Assembly: GCA_030610945.1 (NCBI GenBank)
Contig: JAUWQV010000004.1
Coordinates: forward strand, 53,812-117,811
Direction of reading: 5' to 3'
Source of the DNA: Methanocellales archaeon
GTDB lineage: Archaea; Halobacteriota; UBA148; JAUWXC01
DNA: 64,000 nt
Shown here: piece after piece, positions 3,865 to 64,000 of the stretch
Layout: the number at the start of each line of letters is the position of its first letter
Numbering within the stretch: position 1 is the stretch's first letter
Translations under genes and position numbers: made by a program
Notes under the pieces: model-generated
The model's database searches: none
The model's input: the letters and a program-made list of their open reading frames with translations, nothing else
Told to the model about the DNA's origin: nothing

Positions 3865-4731
3865 TCACGCCCTCGGAGTGGTCATCTTGGTTGCCAATAT
3901 TGTGACTGCCCCGCCCAATGGGATGAGGAAATATGTAATTAAATACAATGGCCTAGGAGCGCCCCCGCTCAACATTAACATGACGGATAACATAATGGTA
4001 AGGAGCAGGGGGCCTGCTACAAACGCCGCCACGTACATCTCGCCTATTAATCCCAGGGTTTCAATAAACTCTTTTTGGGCTAACCTGTTCTCGTTTGCAT
4101 ACACCTCTGCCTTGATTCTAAAATAGGGCTCAAGCTCGCCACCAGACGTGCTCGTCGTAATCACGCCATACAGAAACTCCTGCAACCGCATGGATGGTGT
4201 GGTCGCAGCGACGTTCTTTACTGCAGTATTCAAATCACGCCCGAAGAGGTCAATGTCCCTGACGATGTATCTTGCTTCGACGGCGACGTCCCCATATATG
4301 TCCGCCTTTGCCAGCGAACGAAAGACATCTGCAGGGATTACCTTTGCCCCTGCCATGGCAGCGATGTAGTTGATGGCATATGGCAGCACGGCATCAATAC
4401 GCCTTTTGCGTCTAGCAGCCACTAAGGAAGGATATACCAAAAAGCCAAGGTATGTTAGCATGCAAAATCCAATGCCAATGAGGATGGAAAGACTAACAGT
4501 AATGACATTTAGAGAGCCAAAGACGTGCACAATTATAATGGCAATAATGGTGCCCAAAGCCCCGGCTAGAACAGCGCACACTAAAGTAGTGGCGAGATAC
4601 ATCTCGAATGTGGTTTCCATCCTTGTTTTTAACAGGTCTTGCCGAAGCCCATAGTACTTTTCCCTGTGCGATTTGAGCTGGTCGCCCAAGATGCCATATG
4701 CAAACGTTTGAAGGGCATTAACCACGCACAT
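3865..4731 (-). CDS. type IV pilus/T2SS F-family membrane platform protein (TadC-like)
   Basis: RIDAVLPYAINYIAAMA, TTPSMRLQEFL and TM helices; coupled to the ATPase gene. Confidence 0.88.
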   Translation of the reverse strand: MCVVNALQTFAYGILGDQLKSHREKYYGLRQDLLKTRMETTFEMYLATTLVCAVLAGALGTIIAIIIVHVFGSLNVITVSLSILIGIGFCMLTYLGFLVYPSLVAARRKRRIDAVLPYAINYIAAMAGAKVIPADVFRSLAKADIYGDVAVEARYIVRDIDLFGRDLNTAVKNVAATTPSMRLQEFLYGVITTSTSGGELEPYFRIKAEVYANENRLAQKEFIETLGLIGEMYVAAFVAGPLLLTIMLSVMLMLSGGAPRPLYLITYFLIPLGGAVTILATKMTTPRA

Positions 4732-43779: not shown

Positions 43780-45354
43780 TTGAAGGTTATCGTAACCGAC
43801 CCTATATCTGAAGAGGGGGTAAAGAGACTTAAAAAAGAGGCGACCGTAGAGGTAGCGACTAATCTGAGCGAGAGCGAACTGGTCGAACAAATCAAAGATT
43901 ACGATGCATTGATAGTTAGGAGCGGGACGCAAGTCACGCGAAAGGTCATAAACGCCGCTACTAAGCTAAAAGTTATAGGGCGTGCAGGCGTAGGCGTGGA
44001 TAATATAGATGTAGATGCAGCGACTGAAAAGGGTATCATCGTCATAAACGCTCCAGAAGGAAATACGATATCGGCAGCGGAGCATACAATCGCAATGATG
44101 TTGGCGCTGTCGAGAAACATACCACAGGCCAACGCTTCACTGAAAAGAGGAGAGTGGAGCAGAAGCAAGTTCGTTGGCGTGGAAGTTAACAACAAGATTC
44201 TAGGAATCATTGGGTTGGGACGCGTGGGCACAGAGGTCGTAAGAAGAGCACAAGGACTGGGCATGCAGGTTCTCGCATATGACCCGTTCATATCTGCTGA
44301 AAGGGCAGAAGAACTGGGGATTCAACTCGCTGATATTGATGAAATACTCAAAAAGTCCGATTATATAACAATACATACCCCGTTAAATAAAGATACACGC
44401 CACTTAATTAGCGAGGAGCAGTTCAAAAAGATGAAAGATGGGGCGAGAATCATAAACTGCGCCAGGGGTGGCATTATTGAGGAGGATGTGCTGGCCAGAG
44501 CCATTAAAAGCGGAAAGGTTGCAGGCGCCGCCCTGGACGTTTTTGAGAACGAGCCGCCCAAGGATAGTCCTTTATTGCACTTGGATAACGTGATAGTGAC
44601 GCCACACCTTGGAGCTTCAACCAGAGAGGCACAGGTCAACGTCGCCGTCACCGCCGCAGAAGGTGTACTGGAGGCTCTGAAAGGGGGGCCAGTCAGAAAT
44701 GCCGTGAATATGCCATCCATTAAACCCGAAACGCTAGCCGTGATCAAACCCTATTTGATGCTGGCTGAGAAGTTAGGGAGTCTATGCATTCAGTTGGTAG
44801 AGGGGCGCATAGACGCCGTGGAGGTTTCATACAGCGGTGACGTTGCATCTATAGATACAGGACCGTTGACAATTGCGGTGCTGAAGGGGATTTTAAATAG
44901 AATGCTTTCCGAGCCGGTCAACTTCGTGAATGCACCCGTGATTGCTAAAAGCAGAGGAATCAAGGTTGTAGAGAGTAAGATTGGTGCAACCGAGGATTTT
45001 GCTGACCTGATAACCGTTACAGTAAAAACTCCGAAAGGTGAAAAAAGCGTTGCTGGAACGCTATTTGGGAAGAAGGATGCGAGAATCGTGCGAATCGACA
45101 GATACCATGTAGATGCAGTGCCCTCTGGACACATGCTTGTGTCAGCGCACTTCGACAAGCCGGGCATCATTGGCAGGGTCGGCACAATTCTGGGTGAGAA
45201 TGACATTAACATAGCGGGAATGCAGGTCGGACGTGAAAAGATAAGGGGCAAAGCAGTGATGGTGCTAAACGTCGATAGCGCAGTTCCAGATAAAATACTC
45301 AAGCAAATCGAAAAGATAGATGGTATTTTTGATATAAAACCGGTAGTGCTATGA
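43780..45354 (+). CDS. serA: D-3-phosphoglycerate dehydrogenase (with ASB and ACT domains)
   Basis: GRAGVGVDNID, GLGRVG, NCARGG, TPHLGAST, DKPGIIG. Confidence 0.96.
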   Translation: MKVIVTDPISEEGVKRLKKEATVEVATNLSESELVEQIKDYDALIVRSGTQVTRKVINAATKLKVIGRAGVGVDNIDVDAATEKGIIVINAPEGNTISAAEHTIAMMLALSRNIPQANASLKRGEWSRSKFVGVEVNNKILGIIGLGRVGTEVVRRAQGLGMQVLAYDPFISAERAEELGIQLADIDEILKKSDYITIHTPLNKDTRHLISEEQFKKMKDGARIINCARGGIIEEDVLARAIKSGKVAGAALDVFENEPPKDSPLLHLDNVIVTPHLGASTREAQVNVAVTAAEGVLEALKGGPVRNAVNMPSIKPETLAVIKPYLMLAEKLGSLCIQLVEGRIDAVEVSYSGDVASIDTGPLTIAVLKGILNRMLSEPVNFVNAPVIAKSRGIKVVESKIGATEDFADLITVTVKTPKGEKSVAGTLFGKKDARIVRIDRYHVDAVPSGHMLVSAHFDKPGIIGRVGTILGENDINIAGMQVGREKIRGKAVMVLNVDSAVPDKILKQIEKIDGIFDIKPVVL

Positions 45355-52010: not shown

Positions 52011-52364
52011 ATGGAGGACGTAACCAACATATTTGAGAACACGGGCTCCAGCCTGATAAAAGGCATCATGGAGAGAGGTGGCGCCATTTTAGGAGAAAAA
52101 ATCGAGGGTTTTGCCGGCGTTCTGGTAGAGGACAAGGCATACGCGGATGCTCTCCAAAAGAAGGTGGAGGTGCAAGCCGGCGTAAAAGGCTACATCTCGA
52201 CCGACGAGTTGCCTGCCTATGGAATCTCCAAGGAAGAAAAAGAAGCAATAGAGAGCAGGTTCGGTGTTACGGGAAACGATGTCGTCATCCTGGTTGCTGA
52301 TGAAGAGAGCAAAGCAAGAAGGGCGCTGGAAGTGATAAAAGAAGACGTTTCCAAGCGAAAATGA
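52011..52364 (+). CDS. stand-alone GAD-like domain (GatE/AspRS insertion domain homologue)
   Basis: DVTNIFENTGSSLI, GFAG, GVKGYISTDELPAYGIS.EE, VILVA....A..AL match the GatE insert; has its own GGAGG SD. Confidence 0.75.
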   Translation: MEDVTNIFENTGSSLIKGIMERGGAILGEKIEGFAGVLVEDKAYADALQKKVEVQAGVKGYISTDELPAYGISKEEKEAIESRFGVTGNDVVILVADEESKARRALEVIKEDVSKRK

Positions 52365-52404
52365 TAGACTATATAACAACGAAATCACAAACAAAAAGGG
52401 GGAT

Positions 52405-52560
52405 TTGCCATCTTTTTTGGCCAGAAAAATCCTGAAGGTCGGATCATCCTACATGATCACTTTACCCATGGATATTGTCCGGGGCTTCAGCTGGGACGAG
52501 AACACCAGGATAAAGGCCAGGATAACTGGCAAAAATACGTTGGAGATAAGTGAGGCATGA
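52405..52560 (+). CDS. AbrB/MazE/SpoVT-like small DNA-binding protein (not in ORF track)
   Basis: TTG start after GGGGG; MPSFLARKILKVGSSYMITLPMDIVRGFSWDENTRIKARITGKNTLEISEA. Confidence 0.75.
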   Translation: MPSFLARKILKVGSSYMITLPMDIVRGFSWDENTRIKARITGKNTLEISEA

Positions 52561-52589
52561 AGTTGCAGAGGCAGAGGAATAGAACCTAG

Positions 52590-53345
52590 TTAGGCGAGTT
52601 TCTTTGATATTACGCTTGCCATAAATCCGGTAATAAGGTGATATCTTACTTTTTTACATTCCACATTTCCGCGCTTTGTTGCGGCAACCTTTTGAGAGAG
52701 GGAAGGAGGTATCTCTTTTGATAAATTGAATATATTCAGTTCAGGCTTAAAATCAATCGGCGAAATACCAAACTTTGCAAATACTGGAGGACAGATCTTC
52801 AAAATATCCTGGTTTCTATCATACATCGCGTTAATCATATTTTCAATATGGGTTGTTGTGTATTCATGTTCATCAGACTTGCCTACGGCATCTCTCAGAA
52901 AATCTCTTATAGCGTATGGCAACACCAAACACGACACCAATTCATCATAAATATTGAAAGATGGGCGATCAGTCACAAAACCAACATTGGCATATTCTTT
53001 CATGTACTTTCTAAAGCTGGTCTTCAAGAATTTTAACAATACTCCCCTTTCTTTGTCGTCTAGCTCCTTGTTCACGCGTGCTAAGTCCTCTTCGGTCAGC
53101 TTGAGTAATGGCTCTGCTCTCGATAGAATTGGCTTTGCTAATCCCCTTTTTCCTTTTCCTTCTGTCCTCTTAAAGAGGTGCGCATACTCCTTCGATACGA
53201 TCTTGTAGATCTGATCTGTCCGTGGATTTTTCACTCTTTGTATTTTCTGTCCTATCTCGTAACCACTTATCGGCGCGCCGTATGCTAGGCAATAAATCTT
53301 TGATGGTAAGCCATCTAATATAGGATTTTCAATTTTTCTTGGCAT
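52590..53345 (-). CDS. hypothetical protein with probable N-terminal winged HTH (candidate element repressor)
   Basis: KIYCLAYGAPISGYEIGQKI...QIYKIV; divergent from the RHH operon. Confidence 0.5.
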   Translation of the reverse strand: MPRKIENPILDGLPSKIYCLAYGAPISGYEIGQKIQRVKNPRTDQIYKIVSKEYAHLFKRTEGKGKRGLAKPILSRAEPLLKLTEEDLARVNKELDDKERGVLLKFLKTSFRKYMKEYANVGFVTDRPSFNIYDELVSCLVLPYAIRDFLRDAVGKSDEHEYTTTHIENMINAMYDRNQDILKICPPVFAKFGISPIDFKPELNIFNLSKEIPPSLSQKVAATKRGNVECKKVRYHLITGFMASVISKKLA

Positions 53346-53363
53346 TTTATACCCCCTAAACAA

Positions 53364-53391
53364 TCTTTGGAATATACGTTCTTTGGAATAT
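53364..53391. promoter_or_regulatory. direct repeat operator candidate
   Basis: TCTTTGGAATAT at 53364-53375 and 53380-53391 in the divergent promoter region. Confidence 0.5.
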
Positions 53392-53474
53392 CAATTCTCT
53401 ATATTCCTATATCATAATATATGTAAAAAAAACACATATAATACTTGTGGTCATATGTGGGGGTGTGGTGCCGG

Positions 53475-53600
53475 ATGAAAAAATGGATACACATTACAAT
53501 CGACCACGATGTGCTTGAGAGAATAGACAAAGAGCGTGGTCTAATCCCTAGGTCCACATGGATCAATGACAAGTTAAAGAGAATCGTGGAGGACATATGA
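53475..53600 (+). CDS. ribbon-helix-helix (CopG-like) protein (not in ORF track)
   Basis: MKKWIHITIDHDVLERIDKERGLIPRSTWINDKLKRIVEDI; beta strand plus RGLIPRS pattern. Confidence 0.8.
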   Translation: MKKWIHITIDHDVLERIDKERGLIPRSTWINDKLKRIVEDI

Positions 53601-53746
53601 CCAAAAGCGCTCATATCGAGAAGAGAGGGGGGATCGCCTCGCCTCCCTCTATCCCCTCTGAAGATATCCTAGCTCGCTTGCTGGAGTGGAAGCGCGCTTG
53701 GTGGAAATGGCGAGCAGCGAAAAAGGACAGATGGGAGTTATTATGA
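53597..53746 (+). CDS. 49-aa Trp-rich hypothetical protein (not in ORF track)
   Basis: MTKSAHIEKRGGIASPPSIPSEDILARLLEWKRAWWKWRAAKKDRWELL; ATGA overlaps at both ends and a GGAGG SD. Confidence 0.55.
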   Translation: MTKSAHIEKRGGIASPPSIPSEDILARLLEWKRAWWKWRAAKKDRWELL

Positions 53747-54000
53747 ATCATCAGCTTGCGCCCCAAATTCCCTCTAAGTCCATAAAAAGAATCATGCGAT
53801 CTGCAGGTGCTGGGTGTGTGAGCAGGGGGGCCATTGATATTCGCAATGCAAAAACCTTGCTCCAAGATATACCCCCCGAAATTTTGGATAAATTCGAGTT
53901 TTGGGAGATTGTACTTTTTAAAATTGTTGAAAAGGTGGATCTGAAACTTCAGAAAAAAGGAAGGAAGGAAAATAATGAACCGAAATATCAAGGAAATTAG
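53743..54000 (+). CDS. small protein with archaeal-histone-like N-terminus
   Basis: IPSKSIKRIMRSAGAGCVSRGA resembles HMf [22 protein letters not shown]; the remainder diverges. Confidence 0.5.
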   Translation: MNHQLAPQIPSKSIKRIMRSAGAGCVSRGAIDIRNAKTLLQDIPPEILDKFEFWEIVLFKIVEKVDLKLQKKGRKENNEPKYQGN

Positions 54001-54151
54001 ATTCGTCCATGCGTTTGTTCTTCACACCAATGCCGAGGATGCGGAAAGGGTGAAAGAGTTCATTCTCGAAAAAACTGGGGCCCGTTTGATTTTTGAGAAG
54101 CATTCTGGTGGGCATTTAATTATTAAAGAGGAGAGCGAGTGCCATGGCTAA
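53975..54151 (+). CDS. 58-aa hypothetical protein (not in ORF track)
   Basis: MNRNIKEIRFVHAFVLHTNAEDAERVKEFILEKTGARLIFEKHSGGHLIIKEESECHG; overlaps the helicase start. Confidence 0.55.
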   Translation: MNRNIKEIRFVHAFVLHTNAEDAERVKEFILEKTGARLIFEKHSGGHLIIKEESECHG

Positions 54152-55835
54152 AGCCAAGACTAAGAAAAAGATAGAGGAATGGCACACCAAGGCTGGATTT
54201 TGCCCATTCTGGCGCATTAAAACCCTTAAAGGCGTTGATGAAAAACATCCAACCATCGCCGTTAAATGCCTGATCAACAAAAAAGAACGGTCCATATACG
54301 GGGGCAAGTGCGTCCACGTTGATGCTTCTAGCACCGAAGGAATACAAAATTATAATGATTGCACCCTATACCTTAAAGACCTGAAGAGAAAAGAGGCGGG
54401 GCAAGAAAGTTACTTCCGAGACAAGGCATTCATTGGGAGGTGGTTGGCCAAAGATATCTGCGCAAAACACCGCTTTTTGACACATGAGAAAAGCCACATT
54501 ATTTATGCCTATTCGGATGGTGTTTATTCTGATAATGGTAGCGAGGTTGTCCAAGCAGAGTCCATACGGCTACTTGGTGATTTTTCGAAACGGAATAGGA
54601 TAAATGAGGCGCTGGCATACATTATGTATTCTACATACACTGCGCCAGATAAGTTTGAAGCACCAATAGATTTAATTAATGTAAAAAACGGAATTCTAAA
54701 TTTAGAAACAAACGAACTCATCCCACACACACCAGATATTATTTTTCTAAATCGAATCCCAGTCGATTACGACCCAAAAGCGGACTGCCCTGTAATAAAG
54801 AAGTTCCTTAAGGAAGTTTTACAACCAGATGATATTCCGCTTTTTCAGGAGTATTTTGGTTTTTGCCTTTTGAGAGAATATCGGTTTGCGCGAGCATTGA
54901 TGTTATTGGGTCCTGGAGAGAACGGAAAAACATCGACCCTTTCATTATTAGAGGCTTTTTTAGGCACGGAGAACATCGCAACACCATCGCTACAAGATGT
55001 GGTTTCTAGTCGCTTTTCTCAATATGAACTATATGGGAGACTAGCGAACATCCACGATGATATCCCCTCTTCTAAGCTGTCCTACACGGGCAGATTTAAA
55101 ATGCTGACGGGGGGCGGACTTGTGAGAGGCGAAAAGAAGCATAAGGATGGTTTTAATTTTAAAAATTATGCGAAGTTGATTTATTCGGCTAATGAATTGC
55201 CTGTCGTTGAGGATTCTTCGTTGGCTTTCTGGAGGCGGTGGTTTGTTCTTAAGTTTGATAATAGTTTTCCAGAGGGGGGTAAAAATACAGATCCGAATCT
55301 TCAAAAGAAGTTGACTACGCCAGAGGAGCTGTCGGGGTTTTTGAATTGGGGATTGGTTGGGTTGCGCAGGCTGTTGGAAAATAAGAAGTTCACAACGACA
55401 AAATCGACGCAAGAAACCAAGCGTGAGTGGGTTATGCAGACGGATAGCCTGAGGGCGTTTGTGATGAATTGTGTGAAGCTCAATCCAGAGGTTTCCATTA
55501 CAAAAAACGACTTTTTCGAGGCGTACAAATTGTTCTGCGTTGAATATGAAATCACACCATTAGATAAGGCAAACCTAGGGCGTAAGCTACCCACAATAAC
55601 ACCACAAGTGAGGGATTATATCCCAACTATTGATGGTAAGAGACAACGGGCATGGAAAGGCATAGAGTTATTTTTTGATGAATCTACTGAAAATGGTAAA
55701 GAATTTAGCAAAAAAATTAAAGAATATAACAATAAAGTTGAAAAAGATGGGGGTAGCCACGAGGAAAAAGACATATGGAACGGATATCGAAAAAAAGTCT
55801 GTTCCACCCCCCAAAACACAGAGGAGCGGGGGTAA
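54144..55835 (+). CDS. P4/D5-family SF3 replicative helicase lacking a recognisable primase domain
   Basis: D5_N motifs INVKNGILNL and PVDYDPKA.CP; Walker A GPGENGKT, Walker B NIHDD, motif C SANELP, AFWRRW. Confidence 0.9.
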   Translation: MAKAKTKKKIEEWHTKAGFCPFWRIKTLKGVDEKHPTIAVKCLINKKERSIYGGKCVHVDASSTEGIQNYNDCTLYLKDLKRKEAGQESYFRDKAFIGRWLAKDICAKHRFLTHEKSHIIYAYSDGVYSDNGSEVVQAESIRLLGDFSKRNRINEALAYIMYSTYTAPDKFEAPIDLINVKNGILNLETNELIPHTPDIIFLNRIPVDYDPKADCPVIKKFLKEVLQPDDIPLFQEYFGFCLLREYRFARALMLLGPGENGKTSTLSLLEAFLGTENIATPSLQDVVSSRFSQYELYGRLANIHDDIPSSKLSYTGRFKMLTGGGLVRGEKKHKDGFNFKNYAKLIYSANELPVVEDSSLAFWRRWFVLKFDNSFPEGGKNTDPNLQKKLTTPEELSGFLNWGLVGLRRLLENKKFTTTKSTQETKREWVMQTDSLRAFVMNCVKLNPEVSITKNDFFEAYKLFCVEYEITPLDKANLGRKLPTITPQVRDYIPTIDGKRQRAWKGIELFFDESTENGKEFSKKIKEYNNKVEKDGGSHEEKDIWNGYRKKVCSTPQNTEERG

Positions 55836-56068
55836 AAAGGACGTGAAAAACGCAAAGTGAAAAAAGCAAAAAATGGGGCGATGCACTGCGATGGAACAGA
55901 TGTAACAGATATTACTCACATTTTAAGGGGGAAAGACGGGGGGAGATAGTATATACGGTAACCAAGGAAGAAGTTGCACCAAAAGTCCGTTACATCCGTT
56001 CCGATACAGAGGAGCGCCTCAAAAAACACAAAAAACATCCGTTCCAAAAGATGCAATATTCGTTCCGT
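55775..56068. repeat. iteron-like 9-bp repeats in inverted arrangement; candidate replication origin
   Basis: ATGGAACGGAT 55775, TCTGTTCCA 55798, ATGGAACAG-ATGTAACAG-AT 55891-55910, TCCGTTACA-TCCGTTCC 55986-56002, ATCCGTTCCA 56037, TTCGTTCCG 56059. Confidence 0.7.
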
Positions 56069-56330
56069 TAAAAAAGAAACAAATCCAAAAAAAAACCAAG
56101 AGGGCTACCCAGAAGTAGACCAAGAAACATTGGTAAACTTCTTTTTAAAACACCACCGAGAAATAGTCAACAAGGAGCGCAGCCACCAACCAAGCATTGA
56201 TTTTACGGCTGCCGTTGGTCGTGCTCATCGGGTTTTAGGCGTGAGTAAGGAGAGAGCAGCCAATACACTGGAGAACCTCGTAAGAGATGGAATAATCTCA
56301 ACCTCATTACCAGAATCAAGGAAGAGTTAA
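55974..56330 (+). CDS. hypothetical protein with possible C-terminal wHTH; start uncertain
   Basis: LGVSKERAANTLENLVRDGII; the N-terminus overlaps the repeat region. Confidence 0.35.
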   Translation: MHQKSVTSVPIQRSASKNTKNIRSKRCNIRSVKKETNPKKNQEGYPEVDQETLVNFFLKHHREIVNKERSHQPSIDFTAAVGRAHRVLGVSKERAANTLENLVRDGIISTSLPESRKS

Positions 56331-56454
56331 ACATGAAGTTGATCAATCAACTATCAACTGTCGATCGATGTATTAAAACATCATGAACAAAACTCAATAA
56401 AAAGACAAATATATTTGAAGTAAGAATTCATATTCTGTCTAGGGAGATTGTTGA

Positions 56455-56838
56455 ATGAACGAAGCAGATTTTGTCGTTTATCGGAAAGAGGATATCGCAA
56501 AAATACCCAGAGATGCAAAGGTAGTGCACATCGGCTACAAGATGAGCATCGAGGACATCGGCGAGATAATACGAACGAGGAAAAACCTGAAAGCGCTACG
56601 ATTTCCACCCAGCATCGCGGATCAGCTGCACCCGTTCGTAGGCACCATGCTCGACATGCAGGGCATCAGGAAGCTGGCGGGCTATGCAGACCGGTATGAT
56701 TCAAAGTTCGTAAAGGAAGCGAGAAAGCTCCGCCAGAAGGGATGGAAATATGAAAAGATCGCCGATCACATCTCAGATAAGATCGGAGCAGAACTGTCCG
56801 CGCAGACGATCTGGTATTGGGTGAATAAGAGGAAGTGA
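56455..56838 (+). CDS. DUF1699-like protein with C-terminal HTH
   Basis: VVYRKEDIAKI...VVHIGYKMS..DI...P.S....MLDMQGI resembles Methanosarcinales DUF1699; ends with WKYEKIAD...LSAQTIWYW. Confidence 0.6.
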   Translation: MNEADFVVYRKEDIAKIPRDAKVVHIGYKMSIEDIGEIIRTRKNLKALRFPPSIADQLHPFVGTMLDMQGIRKLAGYADRYDSKFVKEARKLRQKGWKYEKIADHISDKIGAELSAQTIWYWVNKRK

Positions 56839-57008: not shown

Positions 57009-57272
57009 TTGGTGAATTGTATGACAAAGGCATCTAAAACAATCTATTGGAAAGATGTACTCGTAGTAGCAGTGTCCGTTGTCGTAGGCATATATTTGCA
57101 GCGTCCACTTAGTGACGTTTTTGAAAGATATGTTAACGACATCGTTGGAGGGATTTTTGGAACGGTTCTTGTTAACATAGTTGCCATGGTTATAGTAGTG
57201 ATTATAGCAATAGGAACGATTATGTTTGCCATATACATGCTAGCTCGAGCACGGGGATATGAATTTAGATGA
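57009..57272 (+). CDS. small two-TM membrane protein
   Basis: two hydrophobic stretches. Confidence 0.6.
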   Translation: MVNCMTKASKTIYWKDVLVVAVSVVVGIYLQRPLSDVFERYVNDIVGGIFGTVLVNIVAMVIVVIIAIGTIMFAIYMLARARGYEFR

Positions 57273-57341
57273 TCTAAGAAATACCCCCTACCCCCCTACC
57301 ACCGTAATCTATATAACCTAGAAAAGCCATATTTCATCATC

Positions 57342-57593
57342 ATGGCACAAATTAAATCGATCGAAAAAATAACAGAAAACTACGTTTTGAGCACTATAAA
57401 GGCTAGCATTAATATAGAAAAACATATGCAAAGGAGCGGGTGGAGCAACCCAAAAGAGAGGGCATTAAAGTATGCAATTTCCACTATTGTCTCCTCAGGG
57501 GTAAAAAAAGATAGAGCAATAGAGCTTATCGATAGTATAATAAAAAGGGCAAATGAAATAAAGTCCCTTTTATCTCACATTGAAAACTTTTGA
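57342..57593 (+). CDS. hypothetical protein
   Basis: 83 aa ORF with an upstream TATATAA box. Confidence 0.5.
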   Translation: MAQIKSIEKITENYVLSTIKASINIEKHMQRSGWSNPKERALKYAISTIVSSGVKKDRAIELIDSIIKRANEIKSLLSHIENF

Positions 57594-57625
57594 TCGGATA
57601 AAAAAAGTGTAAGAAGCGGATTTAA

Positions 57626-58067
57626 ATGGTTGGAAAGATAAAAGAGGACGTCAAAAGGGACGTTTTGAGATATCTGAATAGTAGAATTCACAAAAGGTGG
57701 AAAGTAGAAGATTTTACCTTATCTTCCATCTGCGAAGCTGTGAATGAAACAAGCGACAGAACTGAAAATATATTGGAGAAACTCAAAGAAGGCGGGTCAA
57801 TCGACAGTCATAGGGTTGAAACTGATATTTTCTTGCCAAAGGACAAAGAACTCACCGAAAAGATAAAGTCGGCTGTAAAGAGCATTCCAACAAACCACCA
57901 GTTGGTCGCGGGCGATTCCAGAAAGACCATCACCATTGAATTACACCACAGGACAGCTGATGATTTACACCATAGCCAGTCTTAAACATGCAATATGGGG
58001 AGGTTTTGCAATGCTCTGCATCGCATTTGGTAGCGCGTGCTTTTTTTGCGCAGGATTGGGTGACTAA
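57626..58067 (+). pseudogene. probable disrupted wHTH + membrane protein
   Basis: wHTH-like N-terminus (FTLSSICEAV...ILEKLKEGG); a hydrophobic segment QLMIYTIASLKHAIWGGFAMLCIAFGS continues in another frame. Confidence 0.4.
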
Positions 58068-58163
58068 GCTCAGCCCCGTATTGATGTCAGAGATTTAAAC
58101 ATTTGGATTCGATTATAAAAGAACCAAAGAACCACATTCACGTGGAGTTGATGACAAGAAAAT

Positions 58164-58378
58164 TTTATGTTAAATTACATAACAATGCTGGAACTCCTTC
58201 GACCCCAGTAAATCTGACATGAACCTGGGTTTGGGATATATCCAATTGCTGAGGGACTTTAAATAAAACCCAACCTTCAACGGTAACACCAGGATATACC
58301 TCATAAGGGGGGGTGATATTCTTCTTTGCCCTTCACATTTTCAAACCCTGTCCTTTTGATATGCGCTAATGAGCGTAT
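58164..58378 (-). pseudogene. remnant of a DUF4352-like surface protein
   Basis: YEVYPGVTVEGWVLFKVPQQLD...NLT*; frame break at the G7 tract 58307-58313. Confidence 0.45.
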
Positions 58379-58440
58379 CCTACTTAATTTGCCTTGTTAG
58401 ACGACAATAACCTCCCCTTATTCCAAATATCTCTTGAAGC

Positions 58441-58917
58441 CTATAAGTTGAAGATATATGCTACATATGGTTCGTGATCTATATATTCGATGATGTGTAA
58501 CTCAATAGGATTCTCATCAAGTGGTATTGATTTGCTTTCCGATGTGTCTTTTTCCTCTCCAGGATAAAAATCTGTTAGTAATCTGACAGGATCTAATCTA
58601 TAAAAATTTCCCTTGGCTGTTTTTAACTCTAAAGAGACAATGGGACTACCATACACCTCGAAATTGGCTGTGTTCTTGAATGTTAAACAAACCTCGAAAA
58701 CCTTGTACTTTTCTCCCTTGAACTCTTTTTCAACAGTCGTTGCATTCACGATTGTTACTAGATACGGAACCTCTTGGGTCCGATGATATTTTTCATAAGT
58801 ATAGGGGAACGATACGACTTTAGGAGAAGGAATTTCAGGTGCTTTTTCTCCAAGACATCCAATGTAAACACATATAATCAAAGCCAACAAAAGCACAACG
58901 GTTACTGCCCTTTTCAT
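58441..58917 (-). CDS. putative lipoprotein (DUF4352-like Ig fold)
   Basis: lipobox YIGC, LTFKNT, LKTAKGNFY, FYPGEEK. Confidence 0.65.
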   Translation of the reverse strand: MKRAVTVVLLLALIICVYIGCLGEKAPEIPSPKVVSFPYTYEKYHRTQEVPYLVTIVNATTVEKEFKGEKYKVFEVCLTFKNTANFEVYGSPIVSLELKTAKGNFYRLDPVRLLTDFYPGEEKDTSESKSIPLDENPIELHIIEYIDHEPYVAYIFNL

Positions 58918-58963
58918 CTCATCACCTTGGTATCTCCTTCTGCCTCGTTTTATCCCTAGGGAA

Positions 58964-59503
58964 TTACGGTTGATCGTATAACATCACTAAAGTATCCGAG
59001 TGAAAGTCTCCTTGAGCTGGTGTGTGTACTGTTACTTCCATCGTGCCATACTGGTTAAGCGGTAAGCTTGAATACTCGCCGTACTCTGGCTCCACCGGAA
59101 TGGCCTCAAATGGGATCCTGATCTGTTCCATATTATTGTTGAAGGTAGCCATGCCCTCGTAAACTAGTTGATCCTTCACTCTCTCAAAGTTCTCGTATTT
59201 TGTCGTGTATATCTTAATCGCCATTGTGCACTCTGTATTTCGGAAGGATATTATCTCCGATTTTTGATTGAAAAAGTAGACAATAACTTTTAGCCCATCA
59301 TATTCTGGGTCGGCATCATCGGTGTATCCCCATGCATACACCGTCGTATATGCTAACCCAGGTATCTCTTTTTTGGCCGTTGGAGACGGCACCGGACTCG
59401 ATGTCGGCGTGATTGGCTCCCGCTCAACACATCCTGCGAACATCACAACGGACGCAATTACTATAATAGCTGCCAAAGTTGCTATGGTTTTATGTTTAGC
59501 CAT
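58964..59503 (-). CDS. putative lipoprotein
   Basis: lipobox FAGC, Pro/Thr/Ser linker, DDADPEYDG. Confidence 0.7.
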   Translation of the reverse strand: MAKHKTIATLAAIIVIASVVMFAGCVEREPITPTSSPVPSPTAKKEIPGLAYTTVYAWGYTDDADPEYDGLKVIVYFFNQKSEIISFRNTECTMAIKIYTTKYENFERVKDQLVYEGMATFNNNMEQIRIPFEAIPVEPEYGEYSSLPLNQYGTMEVTVHTPAQGDFHSDTLVMLYDQP

Positions 59504-59512
59504 TTTCTCACT

Positions 59513-59755
59513 TTATAACTTGAAAAATTTTTTATCATATTGAGGAACAAAATCTCGATAATCTTCTTTAATTCTTTCAATTGATCTTCTTAATACTTCC
59601 TCTTTTGTTTCGTTAGACTTGGCCTTTTTACCTAAACTATGCATTCTCAAAGGCCAATAAAGCATTCTTAATTCATTTTGGGGCGTGTTGCCTCTTGGTA
59701 TGTGTTCCAGTTCTTTTTTTACTTGTTCACGCATTTCTTTTAGTTTACTGGTCAT
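59513..59755 (-). CDS. hypothetical protein
   Basis: 80 aa basic ORF co-oriented with the lipoprotein genes. Confidence 0.55.
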   Translation of the reverse strand: MTSKLKEMREQVKKELEHIPRGNTPQNELRMLYWPLRMHSLGKKAKSNETKEEVLRRSIERIKEDYRDFVPQYDKKFFKL

Positions 59756-60041
59756 TTTGCCACTTAAGTATCTATTTATCCCGATACTTTACTTAAAGTT
59801 TTCTATTGTAAAAACATTTGTCATTTGTCAACAGCTTCATTGGGCGGAAAATCTACTTGTCCAACTAATGATCCAAACAGAATTTACTTTGTCGCAGGTT
59901 TTAAGGTTATTTTGAAAAGGTTGAGACACAAAAGCCATCGAAATTGGTGGGGACAAAAAGGATAATCCCTTCGTACAAGTTTTTTAATCTTAATGGTTTC
60001 GTTGGCATAAATAATTCTAGCGACTTATCAAGATGCATTTT

Positions 60042-60413
60042 TTAGATACCTAGTACCTTCCCTGTGAATCCAATGGCAATATAGAGAACCCAAATTATTG
60101 AAGTTAATAGGATCCAACCAAATACGAAAGAAAACCAACCAAGACCCATAAAGAAGTTCCATAGACGACTATCTCCTTTTCCTTTTCCTGCCAACCAAAT
60201 GAAACCATAAACACACGCTAGAATGAAGAAGAAACTTGAAGATATACCTAACTTAATAGGTTTCAACCATATTTTTGCTGCATCTAATTGTCCTCGAGCA
60301 CCTACTTGGTAAAATATAAAGAGCAATACTGAAGTTACTGCGATGCTAATTCCTGCCATCGTGGCTGAAACGGAGGTAAAAGTCGATGCTAGCAGGTTAT
60401 CGGCTTTTGGCAT
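60042..60413 (-). CDS. three-TM membrane protein
   Basis: three hydrophobic helices; GAGGTG SD. Confidence 0.65.
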   Translation of the reverse strand: MPKADNLLASTFTSVSATMAGISIAVTSVLLFIFYQVGARGQLDAAKIWLKPIKLGISSSFFFILACVYGFIWLAGKGKGDSRLWNFFMGLGWFSFVFGWILLTSIIWVLYIAIGFTGKVLGI

Positions 60414-60424
60414 TTACACCTCTT

Positions 60425-60814
60425 CTACCAAGTATAACTAATTTCCTTTGAGTCTAATAATGATGTTCCTGTATCGTTCCATAACTCAACTTGGATCTTA
60501 AGCAAATCACCTTTGCCCGGATTAGGATTACAATAAACTGCTGTATACTCGGACCCCAACTCCAATCTCGCGCTATTATTGCTAAGTGTTCTGCCGTCTG
60601 TATCGTTCACTATTTTCACTTTAACTATCCCCACTGTAGGAGGGGGTGCTATTTGCATAATTGGCATCTGTATACTGCTTTTTTTAGGTACTATATTCGT
60701 TATCTCTGAGTTCTGTACCCTGACACCTACTGTCAAAGAAGGACTAATGCAACAAGAAGAAAGCACCAGAACAATTGAAATAAGGACCAAAAATAGCCAA
60801 TTTAGTTTTTTCAT
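60425..60814 (-). CDS. secreted protein or lipoprotein
   Basis: signal peptide with LSSCC; beta-rich mature part. Confidence 0.6.
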   Translation of the reverse strand: MKKLNWLFLVLISIVLVLSSCCISPSLTVGVRVQNSEITNIVPKKSSIQMPIMQIAPPPTVGIVKVKIVNDTDGRTLSNNSARLELGSEYTAVYCNPNPGKGDLLKIQVELWNDTGTSLLDSKEISYTW

Positions 60815-61161
60815 TCTTCTCCCATTTAGACTTTAAACGGTGAAGTTTATAAATATATTCGTTTAGACAGTAGATGGCAAATCAAGAAGATTGAACAATT
60901 TTCTTAATCTAATCCAATCTCTTCTCTAACCTTAGTTATATATTCGTTCAGTTTCTCTTCATAATCAGGACTACTTTTTGCCATTTTTTTTGATGCTCTT
61001 TATATCCAAAGTACCAAAATCCTTCACTTACTTCCTCGGTTGAATATAATCTGTGCCACTCCTTTTTTTCGTCCACAGTACAAGATAAACAGGTATCACA
61101 TGAAAATGGATATGTTGGAGCTATTGTAAGGGTTGGGGGTTTCTTGTTAGACGATTAAAAC

Positions 61162-61335
61162 TCATCCTCGCTCTGGGACGAGCACGCCTTTCTCAACGTA
61201 AATTTTTCCACCCTCTTCACAGAAAAGAAGATAGTCGCCCACTCTGAGCCCGCCCATTCTCTCTTGCACCTTCTTTGGAATCGCGATCTGTCTTCTCACC
61301 GTCACCTTTGCCTGAGCAAAATAATCGTGTTTCAT
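61162..61335 (-). CDS. AbrB/MazE/SpoVT-family DNA-binding protein
   Basis: AKVTVRRQIAIPKKVQERMGGLRVGDYLLF.EEGGKIYVEK. Confidence 0.8.
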   Translation of the reverse strand: MKHDYFAQAKVTVRRQIAIPKKVQERMGGLRVGDYLLFCEEGGKIYVEKGVLVPERG

Positions 61336-61458
61336 GGATAGCGTGTTCAAGCGAAAACATTAAAAGCAATATACACTTAAATCTTGTATCAAGATAATAA
61401 GGAAGAATGGTATGAAGAGGATAGGGCTAATTTTGGTCTAAAGATGCATGAGGTCTAA

Positions 61459-61623
61459 GTGAAGCGATATTATACCTGCAACGGCTGCGGCGCCAAGCAT
61501 TCGTTTGAGACCACCCAGGACTATATAGATGGTCTCATCGTGGCGTTCTGTCCCAGCTGCGGAAAGATGAAGGAATTCCTGATGGTTGACGCCGGCGAAG
61601 AGGCAGGGCTCAGGTTGAAATGA
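61459..61623 (+). CDS. 54-aa zinc-ribbon protein (not in ORF track)
   Basis: MKRYYTCNGCGAKHSFETTQDYIDGLIVAFCPSCGKMKEFLMVDAGEEAGLRLK; GAGGT SD, GTG start, ATGA overlap with the next gene. Confidence 0.65.
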   Translation: MKRYYTCNGCGAKHSFETTQDYIDGLIVAFCPSCGKMKEFLMVDAGEEAGLRLK

Positions 61624-61823
61624 AAATGCTAGCACCAGAAGAGGTTAAGATCGGAATGATAATGCTGACAGCAATCATAACGGCTGTCGTAGGATGCTGC
61701 CTGCCAGTAGGGTGGACAACGGGAATAACGATCATTTACCCAATCCAGCTCGTGATTCTCATAACACTGACCCTCCAGATAATAAGAATAACATTGAAAG
61801 AAGAAGGACATTCCCGGGCATAA
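61620..61823 (+). CDS. small two-TM membrane protein
   Basis: two hydrophobic stretches; coupled to the zinc-ribbon gene. Confidence 0.55.
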   Translation: MKMLAPEEVKIGMIMLTAIITAVVGCCLPVGWTTGITIIYPIQLVILITLTLQIIRITLKEEGHSRA

Positions 61824-62356
61824 CACGATGTCGCCTCCCTCCTCTCCTTCTCTTATCGCACGAGGAGGGCAGGAGAATGACTTAATGGAGCTCTAAGCAA
61901 CGTTTAGAAGGACTCTGAACACATTCCATTCAATCTGCGAATGCCTTCTGAACCAATTAACTAAATGGGTATTTACAAACGGAGGCTATCCTGGTATTTT
62001 CACTCCCTGCGCCGACGAGTCAAGGCGAGGAGGCGCAAATCGTCTAATGAAAAGCCTTGAGATGTTATGACGAATTGATATGCGCCCCCATTCATCTTAC
62101 CTTCCAGAACGCTCAAAGTGATGCAGGTTGGAGAATGAGACGAATCCCAATTTTATCTCCTAGCTCTGTGACACTAGGATTTTTATTACTTGGAAGGGTA
62201 ATGACATCACCCTTAACTCCATTTAAATACTCGAGGTTAGCGTAAAATAAAAGTTTTCCTATAAATTTGTCTGTCTAGGAGTTCAGCGAGAAAAATAGGA
62301 AGTTGGATAGCGAGGTTTGTGGAGATCGAAACCGAGGAGTTCGCATCCATACACTC

Positions 62357-62728
62357 TTAGAGGCTACTCATCTCTACTATTCCTCCGGGGAATGCTTCTA
62401 CTCTCTTCTTGTCGTCCAGCTCCTCCTTGCTCAGATGTCGGAGCGAGCGTCCATCCTTCCACTCCTTGTCAGCGTAGATTCCGTACCTGTTCAGCCCTAT
62501 CTCTATCTCCTTCTCGAATTTCTCCCTGGGGGTTAGAACAGTCCTTGATCTTGGATTTTGTTTCTTTATCCATTCTTATCTCGGAATTACTTTCTTGCCT
62601 TTGTCCAGATGCTCTTTCACTTCGTCTCTGATGTTCTCGATCGCATCGTCCAGGTCTGCCTCGTTGCTGATGATGCTCTTCTTCGAGGCTTTTCCAAGAC
62701 TAACTTGCGCCCTCTCCACCCCCCTCAT
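62357..62728 (-). pseudogene. probable BREX scar: BrxC-like C-terminus followed by a frameshifted PglX-like N-terminus
   Basis: 62728-62576 reads ...SIISNEADLDDAIENIRDEVKEHLDKGKKVIPR*; from 62573 MDKETKSKIK/(shift)TVLTPREKFEKEIEIGLNRYGIYADKEW...LRHLSKEELDDKKRVEAF. Confidence 0.5.
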
Positions 62729-63653
62729 TAGGTGGAATCACACCTGCAAGTATCATCTCCCGCTTCTTTTCCACCGCCAAAATGTGATTGTCTAGCTCTG
62801 AGAGGCTGTAGTTACATCCGGAGCACCTGAGCATATCAGGATTCCACTTATAGCCTTCCTTGCATAGGAACGTCTTTATCGGATTAAAGGTGGCATCTTT
62901 AATCCGGGATTTACACTCCGGGTTAGAGGATATCTCCTCCCTCAGCTCGCTATAAACCCTATATCTTTCTTCGTGGAGCTTTTCGTAAACATTTTTGAAC
63001 TTAGAGACGGCTTTATCATAGTTCGAGGTCACAGTGGACTCCATTCCTGAGGCCCCTGCTAATCCTCCTATTATCGCACCAATCAATGCTGACCCCCCAT
63101 AGATTAACATAAGGATGCTTTCCTGGGTCCATGAGGTGATTCCTAGCCACTCAAAGATAAGAAAAATAATATAAAGAGGTGCAAGCGCTATCGCAAGCAC
63201 TAACACCCCTACGGGCCCAAGAATCCAGAAAATGATGAGTGCAAATACAATACAGATTACGAGGACGATTGTGGCGAAGATAGAAACACCAAGTCCCACA
63301 ACAGCACCAACCAAAGCACCAACAAGAGCATCCACAATTCGATAAGAGATCGGTGTTTTGTACGCCCTACCGATCTCTTTGGACAGCTCTTTCTGAACTA
63401 TCGCTATTCCAGTATCACCAACAGCTTCACCCGATGTTATTGTTGCCCATTCCGTAGCAGTATGTGTTTGATTTAAATAAGCATCGTCCCCTTTAGTTAA
63501 CGTAAACTTCCCTCTAAAACCTCCTCCCTTAAACACCACTCCACAAGATGTACACTCAACCAAGGAGTTCTGAGATTTGAGTGAGTTGGGTGCTTTGCAC
63601 ATCGGGCAGCCGCCTCCAAATCCTTGGTTTATCCATTTATCACGAATACCCAT
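62700..63653 (-). CDS. membrane protein with N-terminal zinc ribbon and C-terminal Cys cluster
   Basis: CPMC..CTSC, three to four TM helices, C..C..CSGC near the C-terminus. Confidence 0.65.
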   Translation of the reverse strand: MGIRDKWINQGFGGGCPMCKAPNSLKSQNSLVECTSCGVVFKGGGFRGKFTLTKGDDAYLNQTHTATEWATITSGEAVGDTGIAIVQKELSKEIGRAYKTPISYRIVDALVGALVGAVVGLGVSIFATIVLVICIVFALIIFWILGPVGVLVLAIALAPLYIIFLIFEWLGITSWTQESILMLIYGGSALIGAIIGGLAGASGMESTVTSNYDKAVSKFKNVYEKLHEERYRVYSELREEISSNPECKSRIKDATFNPIKTFLCKEGYKWNPDMLRCSGCNYSLSELDNHILAVEKKREMILAGVIPPNEGGGEGAS

Positions 63654-63824
63654 ATCGAGTGTGTCCTCCCGCTTTTTACTTCAAATTCTCTTGCTCAGTC
63701 TATTTATACCATTGATATTTCTTCAATATAAACATGGACTGTCCGAGATTCTTTAATCGATCTCGGGGGTACGAATTACTTATGTATTCAAAACAAAAAT
63801 GAGAATGTATTGGGGGCGTATGTA

Positions 63825-64000
63825 ATGGCAGAAACGAAGAGGAATACTAAGCATAAAGATGCACAAAATGAACTAGCAGAAAAATTTAGAAAAAAACTTG
63901 GAGATGAAGATAAAGTTTCAACCAAAGGGAACAATCTACCGATATCACCACAAAAAGGAAAACCCACACGAAAAGAAGCCGTTTATCGGCCAGATATAAT
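63825..64000 (+). CDS. N-terminal part of a hypothetical protein, possibly a PD-(D/E)xK nuclease (runs off the window edge)
   Basis: MAETKRNTKHKDAQNELAEKF...AVYRPDI. Confidence 0.4.
   Translation, partial: MAETKRNTKHKDAQNELAEKFRKKLGDEDKVSTKGNNLPISPQKGKPTRKEAVYRPDI

Follow-up and report, generated by a model that had tools for sequence, protein, structure and literature searches.

Positions 52405 to 56838 of the 64,000-nucleotide stretch of archaeal DNA analysed here (the window) probably form the left end of an integrated mobile element, the end that holds its regulatory and replication module. The element would belong to the class termed cryptic integrated elements (CIE). This class, which is already known, combines an integrase and a replication protein without recognisable virion or conjugation genes. 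A sequence-only reading had envisaged a mobile element of 4.4 kb; an integrase, flanking repeats and empty sites in relatives support the integrated mobile element, but not the size of the unit: the island measures 22.8 kb or more, a lower bound as its two halves lie on separate contigs (C1 and C3) without overlap and the gap could hide genes. On C1 the island runs on for 1336 nt past the window, up to the contig end, and comparison with three congeneric genomes (G001, G002 and G003) suggests that the part on C3 is its other end. The reading frames flagged earlier are all among the following features:

52365 to 52371, no strand: core of the left junction (attL), TAGACTA, directly 3' of the GAD-gene stop codon
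52405 to 52560, plus: AbrB/SpoVT-type small DNA-binding protein, 51 aa (Pfam PF04014, AbrB/MazE, E 3.8e-7), the first gene inside the element
52590 to 53345, minus: regulator candidate, 251 aa, with an N-terminal PadR/ArsR-like winged helix and a helical C-terminal half
53360 to 53391, no strand: tandem 16-bp repeat, ACAATCTTTGGAATAT / ACGTTCTTTGGAATAT, in the divergent spacer, an operator candidate
53475 to 53600, plus: first gene of the rightward operon, 41 aa, RHH-like by topology only
53597 to 53746, plus: Trp-rich ORF, 49 aa with 5 Trp, its start overlapping the preceding stop (ATGA)
53743 to 54000, plus: 85-aa ORF, earlier labelled histone-like, of uncertain coding status
53975 to 54151, plus: 58-aa ORF, part of the helicase cassette
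54144 to 55835, plus: D5-like SF3 helicase, 563 aa, with about 90 unique N-terminal residues, D5_N, SF3 ATPase and a C-terminal winged helix
55777 to 56066, no strand: ATCYGTTCC-type iteron cluster, two copies inverted relative to three, a putative replication origin
55974 to 56330, plus: ORF of up to 118 aa, nearest named clusters below 0.8
56455 to 56838, plus: DUF1699 protein (match 1.9e-12)
57009 to 60814, no strand: low-G+C cargo (0.37-0.39) of eight small ORFs, whose N-termini mostly look, by eye, like membrane segments or signal peptides
61156 to 62068, no strand: multi-copy block inside the island, with an AbrB gene (61162-61350, minus), a 54-aa zinc ribbon, a 67-aa membrane ORF and a non-coding tail
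62576 to 64000, no strand: further island genes, namely a 50-aa ORF, a zinc-ribbon membrane protein of 317 aa (minus) and the first part of a 158-aa ORF
contig C3, about 44779-44785, no strand: second TAGACTA copy, overlapping the tmk stop codon

In this small-genome archaeon the GAD-domain gene and tmk, both housekeeping genes, converge, and the insertion point falls exactly between their stop codons. Two of the three congeners (G001 and G002) are without the island and have these stop codons 1 nt apart, inside one TAGACTA that is the only copy of the 7-mer there, while the host genome (G000) and G003 have it at both junctions. The two genes are spaced by 0.25-0.6 kb in 6/6 order-level loci examined, and G+C drops from about 0.47-0.50 to 0.37-0.43 across 52-61 kb. 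A repeat of 7 bp is very short for an att site, which is a caveat against the best explanation; CIE att sites as short as 8 bp are described (PMC6563490). The only Phage_integrase match in the assembly is a tyrosine integrase on C3 that starts 55 nt from the right junction. An integrase further along, flanking repeats and, in two of the three congeners, an empty site after the GAD-domain gene, all of which the sequence-only reading had proposed to look for, are present. The integrase is under purifying selection, with a dN/dS of 0.12 and a dS of 0.17 against G003. It has Gly where XerA has its first catalytic arginine (Ser in a 63% homologue) and therefore its activity is not assured. Homologues with 62-63% identity adjoin genes of replication type in G011 and G012, two further genomes of the order; the neighbors in G011 are an AbrB gene and a 967-aa protein, which shows a 43% match to residues 109-525 of the helicase described here and is longer by about 310 residues at its N-terminus.

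Today the element is a mosaic and has decayed at least in part. The 33.6-kb island of the congener G003 has both ends in common with that of the host genome but lacks the helicase cassette; positions 53940-56388 are replaced there by 677 nt, the similarity stopping at 53939 inside the 85-aa ORF, and its cargo includes type I restriction-modification genes and a SNF2/methylase cluster. G003 has apparently lost the cassette, although the cassette could also have been inserted later into an element that originally lacked it. Between the two islands dS per segment varies from 0.03 to 0.92, the latter being the value for the first AbrB gene (dN/dS 0.15). This gene is a recombination breakpoint in other strains, and two further strains share attL and its start before diverging. 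Such block replacements with sharp breakpoints, including the G003 cargo at the site, would also be expected of a recombination hotspot or an integron-like cassette array run by the neighboring recombinase, with the helicase block being an exchangeable cassette and no part of a replicon. However, the seven breakpoints examined share no junction motif or hairpin, TAGACTA does not recur internally, no G+C-rich islet is present in the C1 portion of the island, and the repeated stretch at 61815-62075 folds no better than shuffles (z -1.14). One breakpoint falls inside duplicated 3' ends of AbrB genes, a sign of homologous recombination, and the integrase-replicase linkage recurs in G011 and G012; we consider this explanation decidedly improbable. 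The island also contains cell-type genes (an S8 protease with a PGF-CTERM anchor and a universal stress protein) and may therefore be composite. Copies of the multi-copy block are found at the start of C3, at C4:2839-4729 and at the end of C7, and none of the eight cargo ORFs at 57009-60814 is found in the congener.

The assignment to the CIE class rests further on the replication protein. The rightward operon is packed, with the gene overlaps described earlier, and its last gene is an intact D5/SF3 helicase, as had been predicted, with matches to D5_N (3.6e-16), DUF5906/SF3 helicase (8.9e-18) and NCBIfam TIGR01613, 'phage/plasmid primase, P4 family' (203.7 bits, cut-off 108.7). It retains all columns that are invariant among 20 sequences, including K262, D306, N350 and R365, and shares the arrangement of D5_N, SF3 ATPase and C-terminal winged helix with D5-like or P4-family SF3 helicases of archaeal viruses and plasmids. 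The best relatives among 439 show 50-54% identity, and the closest named hosts are Hadarchaea (50-51%). Unlike many D5-like relatives, which have a fused Prim-Pol domain, it contains neither a primase domain nor a remnant of one, and the separate Prim-Pol gene found two genes upstream of the relative in locus L038 is absent here. The first 90 or so residues match nothing across the 201 loci used for comparison (121 genome and IMG/VR loci and 80 metagenome loci). In these loci the helicase is found without any of the small genes, and the 58-aa ORF has no homologue in any searched genome, IMG/VR or metagenome locus. The earlier suggestion of an undescribed family is thus not upheld, and elements with an integrase and SF3 helicase are already described in PMC6563490.

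The iteron cluster is a putative replication origin. In the 64 kb ATYYGTTCC has 7 matches against 2.31 expected, and 5/7 of these cluster within 55777-56066, two on the minus and three on the plus strand, in agreement with the inverted iteron-like repeats noted previously. The 5' part of the following ORF overlaps the iterons and hence the real gene may be shorter; it has no PDB or family match, and its C-terminal part may, as a lead only, be a winged helix. The DUF1699-like gene was correctly recognized; it is one of five paralogues in the genome and shows 76% amino-acid identity in the congener.

On the regulator side the flanking AbrB gene and the leftward winged-helix-like gene both hold up. 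The start of the latter is placed at Met7 (53345) because the alignment of 93 relatives begins there. The protein itself has no family match; PadR matches 9/53 members of its family, and residues 3-82 of its model (pLDDT 84.5) align with winged-helix regulators, with a best structural match of Z 8.1 and an rmsd of 3.3 over 75 residues. Foldseek alone returned nothing below E 0.16 with this model. The direct repeat reported in the divergent spacer is a pair of tandem 16-mers identical at 14/16 bases, the second of which is altered at two bases in the congener; the window contains 3 copies of their 10-bp core, TCTTTGGAAT, where 0.29 would be expected, and 0/100 shuffles reach this count. The first rightward gene is taken as 41 aa because the longer frame holds a stop in the congener, and shows 0 changes in 126 nt. 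Its single-sequence model (coil-helix-helix, pLDDT 74) is compatible in topology with the ribbon-helix-helix label given to it, which lacks proof, there being no family or PDB sequence match. The Trp-rich ORF also has no family match and is kept in the congener with 1 synonymous and 3 non-synonymous changes. The histone-like label of the 85-aa ORF is not supported, as there is no Pfam match, no histone among PDB matches up to E 5, low Atlas recognition (1292) and a dN/dS of 1.0 against the congener. The leftward regulator shows 5 synonymous and 15 non-synonymous changes (dN/dS 0.82). Overall, the regulator block, with a dN/dS of 0.82-1.0 as against 0.08-0.12 for ValRS, PC4 and IMPDH, drifts nearly neutrally.

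On C3 the integrase is accompanied by a candidate small terminase (TerS) and by a large one (TerL), so that the absence of capsid genes stands, with a contig gap remaining, while an absence of any virion-related genes is not quite right. No portal or capsid family was detected in G000, G001 or the complete G003, nor any such PHROG among the 29 proteins of this island and 18 of the G003 island that were scanned. TerL on C3 has one nonsense codon (CAG to TAG at an invariant Gln), and no PylS above the cut-off was found in the 4 genomes searched; the frames on C4 and in G003 are intact. The three copies differ mostly synonymously (dN/dS 0.09-0.10, dS 0.6-0.9) and were therefore functional for most of their history. 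The terminase pair beside the integrase would fit a head-tailed provirus reduced to a remnant by loss of its head and tail genes, with the helicase module being its old viral replication module. Relatives of the helicase are encoded by 41 IMG/VR loci, the closest of which (L110, 52% identity) lies on a contig that also encodes a terminase and a portal protein, and a similar element with TerS, TerL and integrase is read as a likely viral relic in PMC6563490. However, all three full-length TerS/TerL loci seen (C3, C4 and the G003 island) are without structural genes, and intact frames on C4 and in G003 with selection in all three comparisons are also unexpected for independent relics. Moreover, helicase relatives occur in many non-viral contexts, and TerL and the helicase lie at opposite ends of a mosaic island and, given the range of dS per segment, may have separate histories. 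A provirus origin is accordingly regarded as rather unlikely.

Bacterial PICIs and P4-like satellites have the order integrase, divergent regulators, small ORFs, primase-helicase-type replicase and origin, and P4-type satellites carry defence cargo. The likeness to these elements that had been proposed applies to the layout, and the P4-family helicase core (TIGR01613) is shared, but it does not extend beyond this. A PICI-style satellite, which would ride in the capsid of another virus, is a possibility; a working one, which would excise on infection by a head-tailed helper, use its own helicase and pack its DNA into helper capsids through TerS/TerL, is improbable. The gene order, the lack of portal and capsid families, the selection on TerL copies that are each without structural genes, and the defence cargo of the G003 island favor it. 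Against it, no helper virus is known and TerL has no close relative in IMG/VR (distant ones being 24-34% identical), its own TerL is broken, G003 is without the helicase and the regulator block shows no purifying selection. The archaeal host, the size of at least 22.8 kb, the cell-type cargo and the lack of a primase domain also differ from PICIs and P4, Pfam and PHROGs scans found no homologues of their regulatory or capsid-redirecting genes (the capsid-size and packaging-interference functions that define them), and TerL is an additional gene of the present element.

Satellites of archaeal viruses include pSSVx/pSSVi of Sulfolobus. Others are the SRCE elements of haloarchaea (bioRxiv 10.1101/2025.02.15.638363) and, putatively, the Asgard NMV2S, which is reported to encode an Arc-like regulator together with a helicase-primase and to be linked with a head-tailed virus (bioRxiv 10.64898/2026.08.12.739948). 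As described, these likewise have plasmid-type replication modules without a full virion module, but are small circular episomes supported by coverage or particles, whereas the present element is a chromosomal island with integrase and terminase genes. The closest parallel to the cryptic integrated element favored here is with the archaeal CIE defined for Thaumarchaeota by an integrase and an SF3-helicase replication protein (Krupovic et al. 2019, PMC6563490). As described there, these have a tyrosine integrase at one end, short flanking repeats (down to 8 bp there, 7 bp here), and similar RHH, winged-helix and restriction-modification cargo. NitKor-E1 has only TerS, TerL and integrase, with no other viral gene, recalling the terminase pair beside the integrase here. 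The present element differs in its archaeal lineage, in a helicase without a fused primase domain and in accessory genes with no sequence similarity to any compared locus.

As a CIE, the element would use its integrase to recombine at the TAGACTA core, and the excised circle would replicate from the inverted iterons. The primase-less SF3 helicase would bind and open this iteron origin, leaving priming to the host primase, while the leftward PadR-like protein and the 41-aa RHH-like protein would form a switch on the tandem 16-bp repeat.

The stretch at window 52405-56838 is probably the part of an integrated mobile element that serves its regulation and replication; the element would belong to the cryptic integrated element class. 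Upstream of the stretch lie a PC4-like gene and a GAD-domain gene, the latter present in all three congeners (G001, G002 and G003) at 83-85% identity. In two of these, G001 and G002, tmk lies on the opposite strand directly after the GAD gene, with both stop codons inside one TAGACTA, and the spacing between GAD and tmk is 0.25-0.6 kb in all six order-level loci. The empty site and the att repeats sought by the sequence-only reading are both there: TAGACTA, only 7 bp long, occurs once in the empty sites of the two congeners and at both junctions of an island in G003 and in the assembly under study (G000; 992 kb, 7 contigs, 82% complete), where tmk is on contig C3, apart from the GAD gene on C1.

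Position and extent of the island in G000
C1:53812-117811, the window, with C1 ending 1336 nt past it
Window 52365-52371, left junction TAGACTA, after the GAD stop
C3, at the tmk stop, right junction TAGACTA
C1:106183 to the end of C1, left piece of the island, 12,965 nt
End of C3 back to about C3:44786, right piece of the island, about 9.8 kb

The island thus totals at least 22.8 kb, with a gap between the C1 and C3 pieces; in G003, a single complete contig of 987,146 nt, the same two junctions are 33.6 kb apart. Accordingly, of the compact replicon unit proposed earlier the replication module stands, whereas the 4.4 kb do not make up the whole unit. The 4.4-kb stretch as a unit with flanking direct repeats of its own was rejected, no convincing repeats being found around it. 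The G+C content drops from about 0.47-0.50 to 0.42-0.43 (52-57 kb) and then to 0.37-0.39 (57-61 kb). The window holds no tRNA gene, and tRNA-targeted integration is therefore ruled out. Rfam gave no matches on either island piece at E up to 0.1, and PADLOC, run on 18 of the approximately 29 island proteins of G000, gave a single, sub-threshold match. The left junction reads TGA-TAGACTA-TATAAC (window 52362-52376); through the insertion the GAD gene now ends in a different stop codon, TGA, and a TATA-like sequence has come to lie some 30 nt ahead of the start of the AbrB gene.

No overlap joins the end of C1 to that of C3. A multi-copy block at window 61156-62068, comprising an AbrB gene, a 54-aa zinc ribbon, a 67-aa membrane ORF and a non-coding tail, has copies at or near contig ends (C3:2-501; C4:2839-3340 and 4541-4729; C7:75812-76229; C1:48104-48258) and probably breaks the assembly; the only overlap found, of 141 nt, links the first bases of C3 with the last of C7.

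Genes at the far end of the island, in order inwards from tmk on C3
First, 420-aa tyrosine recombinase, C3:44840-46102 (extracted locus L153:4841-6103), Phage_integrase, E 1.8e-14
Second, acylphosphatase-like ORF
Third, 203-aa HTH-bearing ORF in the small-terminase (TerS) position, without family match
Fourth, large terminase (TerL) in two in-frame halves, phrog_675 (3.3e-47 and 1.3e-18) and Pfam GpA_ATPase; with the third gene, C3:47027-49280 (L153:7027-9280)
Fifth, 161-aa ORF
Sixth, 1403-aa S8 protease with a PGF-CTERM anchor
Tail of C1, universal-stress-protein gene

An integrase, which the sequence-only reading proposed to look for by extending the contig rightwards, is thus present at the far end of the island. 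Its gene begins 55 nt inside the right junction, and the 82%-complete G000 assembly yielded no other Phage_integrase match or tyrosine recombinase. Its score on the XerA model is 73.8 bits against a cut-off of 220. Alignment to XerA structures shows H290-x-x-R293, H316 and Y325 all in place, while the position of the first catalytic arginine (Arg I) is occupied by Gly, and by Ser in the 63% homologue from G012, another genome of the order; the dN/dS of 0.12 argues for a functional protein despite the Gly at Arg I. Of 14 genomes from the order, 5 encode homologues. Next to the G012 homologue are a 297-aa gene, HTH-type by eye, and another of 991 aa; that of G011 (62%) has as neighbours an AbrB gene and a gene for a 967-aa protein, which in its helicase part shares 43% identity with the island helicase. 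The G011 integrase gene (C10:29234-29863; L167:17235-17813) contains an in-frame TAG and is truncated where the contig stops; TTGGATAT repeats, possibly arm-type binding sites, crowd the spacer that separates it from the AbrB gene.

Features of the module (window coordinates)
52405-52560, AbrB/MazE gene, family match
53345, start of the leftward gene, 251 aa
53360-53391, tandem 16-mer in the divergent spacer
54144-55835, SF3 helicase gene
55777-56066, cluster of five iteron-like repeats
56455-56838, DUF1699 gene, family match

All ORFs named in the sequence-only reading exist, and its AbrB and DUF1699 labels are backed by the family matches. Its D5/SF3 helicase call is likewise borne out by above-cut-off matches to Pfam (D5_N and DUF5906) and to NCBIfam TIGR01613, 'phage/plasmid primase, P4 family', which corresponds to the helicase (203.7 bits, cut-off 108.7). 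The PHROGs class is that of 'DNA primase' families, and a weak RFX-type winged helix lies at the C-terminus. The protein keeps every invariant column across 20 aligned relatives, including K262, D306, N350 and R365, which we take to be the Walker A, Walker B, motif C and arginine-finger residues, respectively. A primase domain of AEP or Toprim type was sought both within the helicase and beside it: the protein matched no primase family, and the DNA upstream, examined for a primase remnant, showed no similarity to the N-terminal approximately 310 residues of two longer same-phylum relatives.

Relatives of the helicase number 439 among 8000 scored candidates, the best being 50-54% identical, with a Prim-Pol domain in some and none in others; named hosts are Hadarchaea, Aenigmatarchaeota, Thermoplasmatota and Bathyarchaeia. 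In a Hadesarchaea relative (50%) the Prim-Pol gene is separate and lies two genes upstream, and the closest of the relatives encoded in 41 IMG/VR loci (52%) is accompanied by a terminase and a portal gene. The helicase was not found in the three same-genus genomes, nor did a single-protein scan of genome and viral collections return close relatives. The search for conserved synteny of helicase and small ORFs proposed earlier, IMG/VR included, found none: the small ORFs have no counterparts in 121 genome and viral loci, and in 80 metagenome loci no homologues beyond one weak AbrB match and one weak match to a 257-aa protein. Integrases of 23-24% identity occur in 3 of these 80.

For the leftward gene, which has no family match of its own, a search of 1.84 billion library representatives gave 93 relatives (E up to 0.001). 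In nearly all of these the alignment begins at query residue 7 and covers roughly the first 120 residues, and the gene is therefore taken to start at 53345 and to encode 251 aa. Its earlier description as winged-helix-like draws support from PadR matches in 9 of 53 aligned family members and, on a second look, from residues 3-82 of the AlphaFold model (pLDDT 84.5), which align with ArsR-, PadR- and MarR-type regulators (best Z 8.1, rmsd 3.3 over 75 residues), but none from Foldseek, where nothing fell below E 0.16. The gene labelled RHH encodes 41 aa, because the longer frame has a stop in a congener; its single-sequence model (pLDDT 74) has the coil(1-10)-helix-helix topology consistent with that label, which no family or PDB sequence match backs. 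The 'histone-like' label finds no support, there being no Pfam match at E up to 0.01, no histone among PDB matches up to E 5, and an Atlas recognition of 1292.

Both kinds of repeat reported earlier were recovered. The direct repeat of the divergent spacer is a tandem 16-mer with 14 of 16 bases identical, its 10-bp core occurring three times in the window against 0.29 expected. The iteron-like ATYYGTTCC has seven matches in 64 kb, five of them in the cluster by the helicase end, two one way and three opposite. Judged from this anatomy, the integrase would act at TAGACTA, the helicase would work on the inverted iterons with priming left to the host, and the tandem repeat would be the site of a PadR-like/RHH-like switch.

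Comparison with G003 reveals a mosaic. Identity is 91.6% over the core as far as the AbrB gene, beyond which 4 kb are peculiar to G003 (an AAA_14/DUF4143 ATPase and others). It rises to 96.6% in the block at 52544-53939, with the regulator, spacer and small ORFs; core segments of the same genomes span 88-97%, and this value is therefore no proof of recent transfer. The next segment in G000, 53940-56388, with the 58-aa ORF, helicase, iterons and a 118-aa ORF, is replaced in G003 by 677 nt. The DUF1699 gene is 83% identical, 4.3 kb of small membrane ORFs in G000 face 16.6 kb in G003 (a CAAX protease, type I restriction-modification and an SNF2-helicase/methylase/NOV_C cluster), and the second AbrB block is 89% identical. 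The restriction-modification system of G003 is complete and, with the SNF2-helicase/406-aa/DNA-methylase/NOV_C cluster (L027:3531-9317 and L029:13718-19950), makes up defence-type cargo at the same site. DUF1699 has five paralogues at 72-82% nucleotide identity in this approximately 1-Mb genome (window 56455-56838; C1:52107-52562; C2:18479-18868; C5:186748-187131; C3:10236-10462), the island copy marking a block boundary.

Among metagenome contigs, one from run X2 has the G003-type arrangement, those from X9 and X10 share attL and the AbrB start and diverge beyond, and in X1 the helicase region is covered by short, low-depth assembled pieces. One breakpoint lies inside duplicated AbrB 3' ends, and the seven examined share no motif. 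An integron-like cassette array was rejected, as the junctions have no repeated recombination site: they lack a common motif, the C1 part of the island has no G+C-rich islets, and the repeated stretch has no significant fold.

Selection on core and island genes (dN/dS)
ValRS, core, 0.12
PC4, core, 0.08
IMPDH, core, 0.10
Integrase, 0.12 (dS 0.17)
TerL, three copies, 0.09-0.10 (dS 0.6-0.9)
AbrB1, 0.15 (dS 0.92)
251-aa regulator, 0.82 (5 synonymous, 15 non-synonymous changes)
Trp-rich ORF, 0.85
85-aa ORF, 1.0
41-aa gene, no ratio (zero changes)

The element looks sedentary and appears to be eroding in both genomes that hold it, G000 and G003. TerL is broken by a single CAG-to-TAG change at a position where 18 aligned relatives invariably have Gln; pyrrolysine was rejected, PylS scoring above cut-off in none of four genomes searched, and the TAG is therefore a true stop. 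G000 has another TerS/TerL pair, this one intact, among toxin-antitoxin-type genes (G000:C4:5837-8015; L155), and G003 has one full and two partial terminase loci (196544-198199, 284524-285744, 816050-816271). The pairs in both genomes have toxin-antitoxin or integrase genes as neighbours and no portal or capsid gene beside them. Portal and capsid families PF05136, PF04860, PF06381, PF05065 and PF03864 were not found in G000, G001 or G003, PF06381 having matched no control genome either, and a PHROGs scan of 29 proteins of the assembled G000 island and 18 of the complete G003 island gave no portal, capsid or tail protein. Of the terminase, portal, major capsid and tail genes expected of a head-tailed provirus, these scans recovered the terminase. 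The earlier statement that capsid genes are lacking thus agrees with these searches, but the TerS candidate and TerL mean that the island is not free of virion-related genes. Most differences between the TerL copies are synonymous (dN/dS about 0.1), a pattern that at the sequence level suggests long-term function over simple relics.

The terminases raise the alternative that the island and the TerS/TerL-only loci (C4 and the congener) are undescribed archaeal satellites of head-tailed viruses, which we consider unlikely. If it were true, the satellite would supply the integrase, the PadR/RHH switch, a primase-less helicase with iteron origin and the terminase, the helper lending only capsids and tails, and purifying selection on capsid-less terminase genes would mean function rather than relic status. 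Of the two bacterial models proposed earlier, PICI islands are small, about 10-15 kb, with integrase, divergent regulators, replication module and origin. That layout recurs here, whereas our island is of at least 22.8 kb with the integrase at its far end. P4-like satellites carry Sid/Psu/Delta-type capsid and helper-control genes and a cos site; no such Sid, Psu or Delta families are among the Pfam or PHROGs matches of island proteins. Comparisons of TerL with viral collections and relatives identified no helper virus, and a Methanobacteriaceae contig (L171) with a 41%-identical TerL has no portal or capsid PHROG and one weak tail match. Archaeal satellites are tied to spindle-shaped viruses in the accessible part of one preprint (bioRxiv 10.1101/2025.02.15.638363), and that of another has one putative Asgard case (bioRxiv 10.64898/2026.08.12.739948); judged from these portions of the literature on archaeal satellites, such a life style would possibly be new for head-tailed archaeal viruses.

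The features of a cryptic integrated element are more closely matched: an integrase by one junction, junction repeats that are single in the empty site, and absence from relatives. As for the lack of virus and conjugation signature genes that marks this class, the island has TerS/TerL, and the five portal/capsid families were not found. The class is described for archaea, and the accessible part of that account includes one thaumarchaeal member for which the same puzzle of an unexplained TerS/TerL pair was already raised (PMC6563490).

The findings thus define a cleanly bounded mobile element, with empty site, junction repeat and integrase, in an uncultured, Methanosarcinales-related lineage of very small genomes. 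They also illustrate how such an island turns over: between close species entire blocks, the replication module among them, are exchanged or disappear, and selection on the integrase persists meanwhile. The terminase pairs, kept under selection without capsid genes in two genomes, may be a more useful observation than the element itself, and bear on the question of terminase-carrying archaeal satellites.
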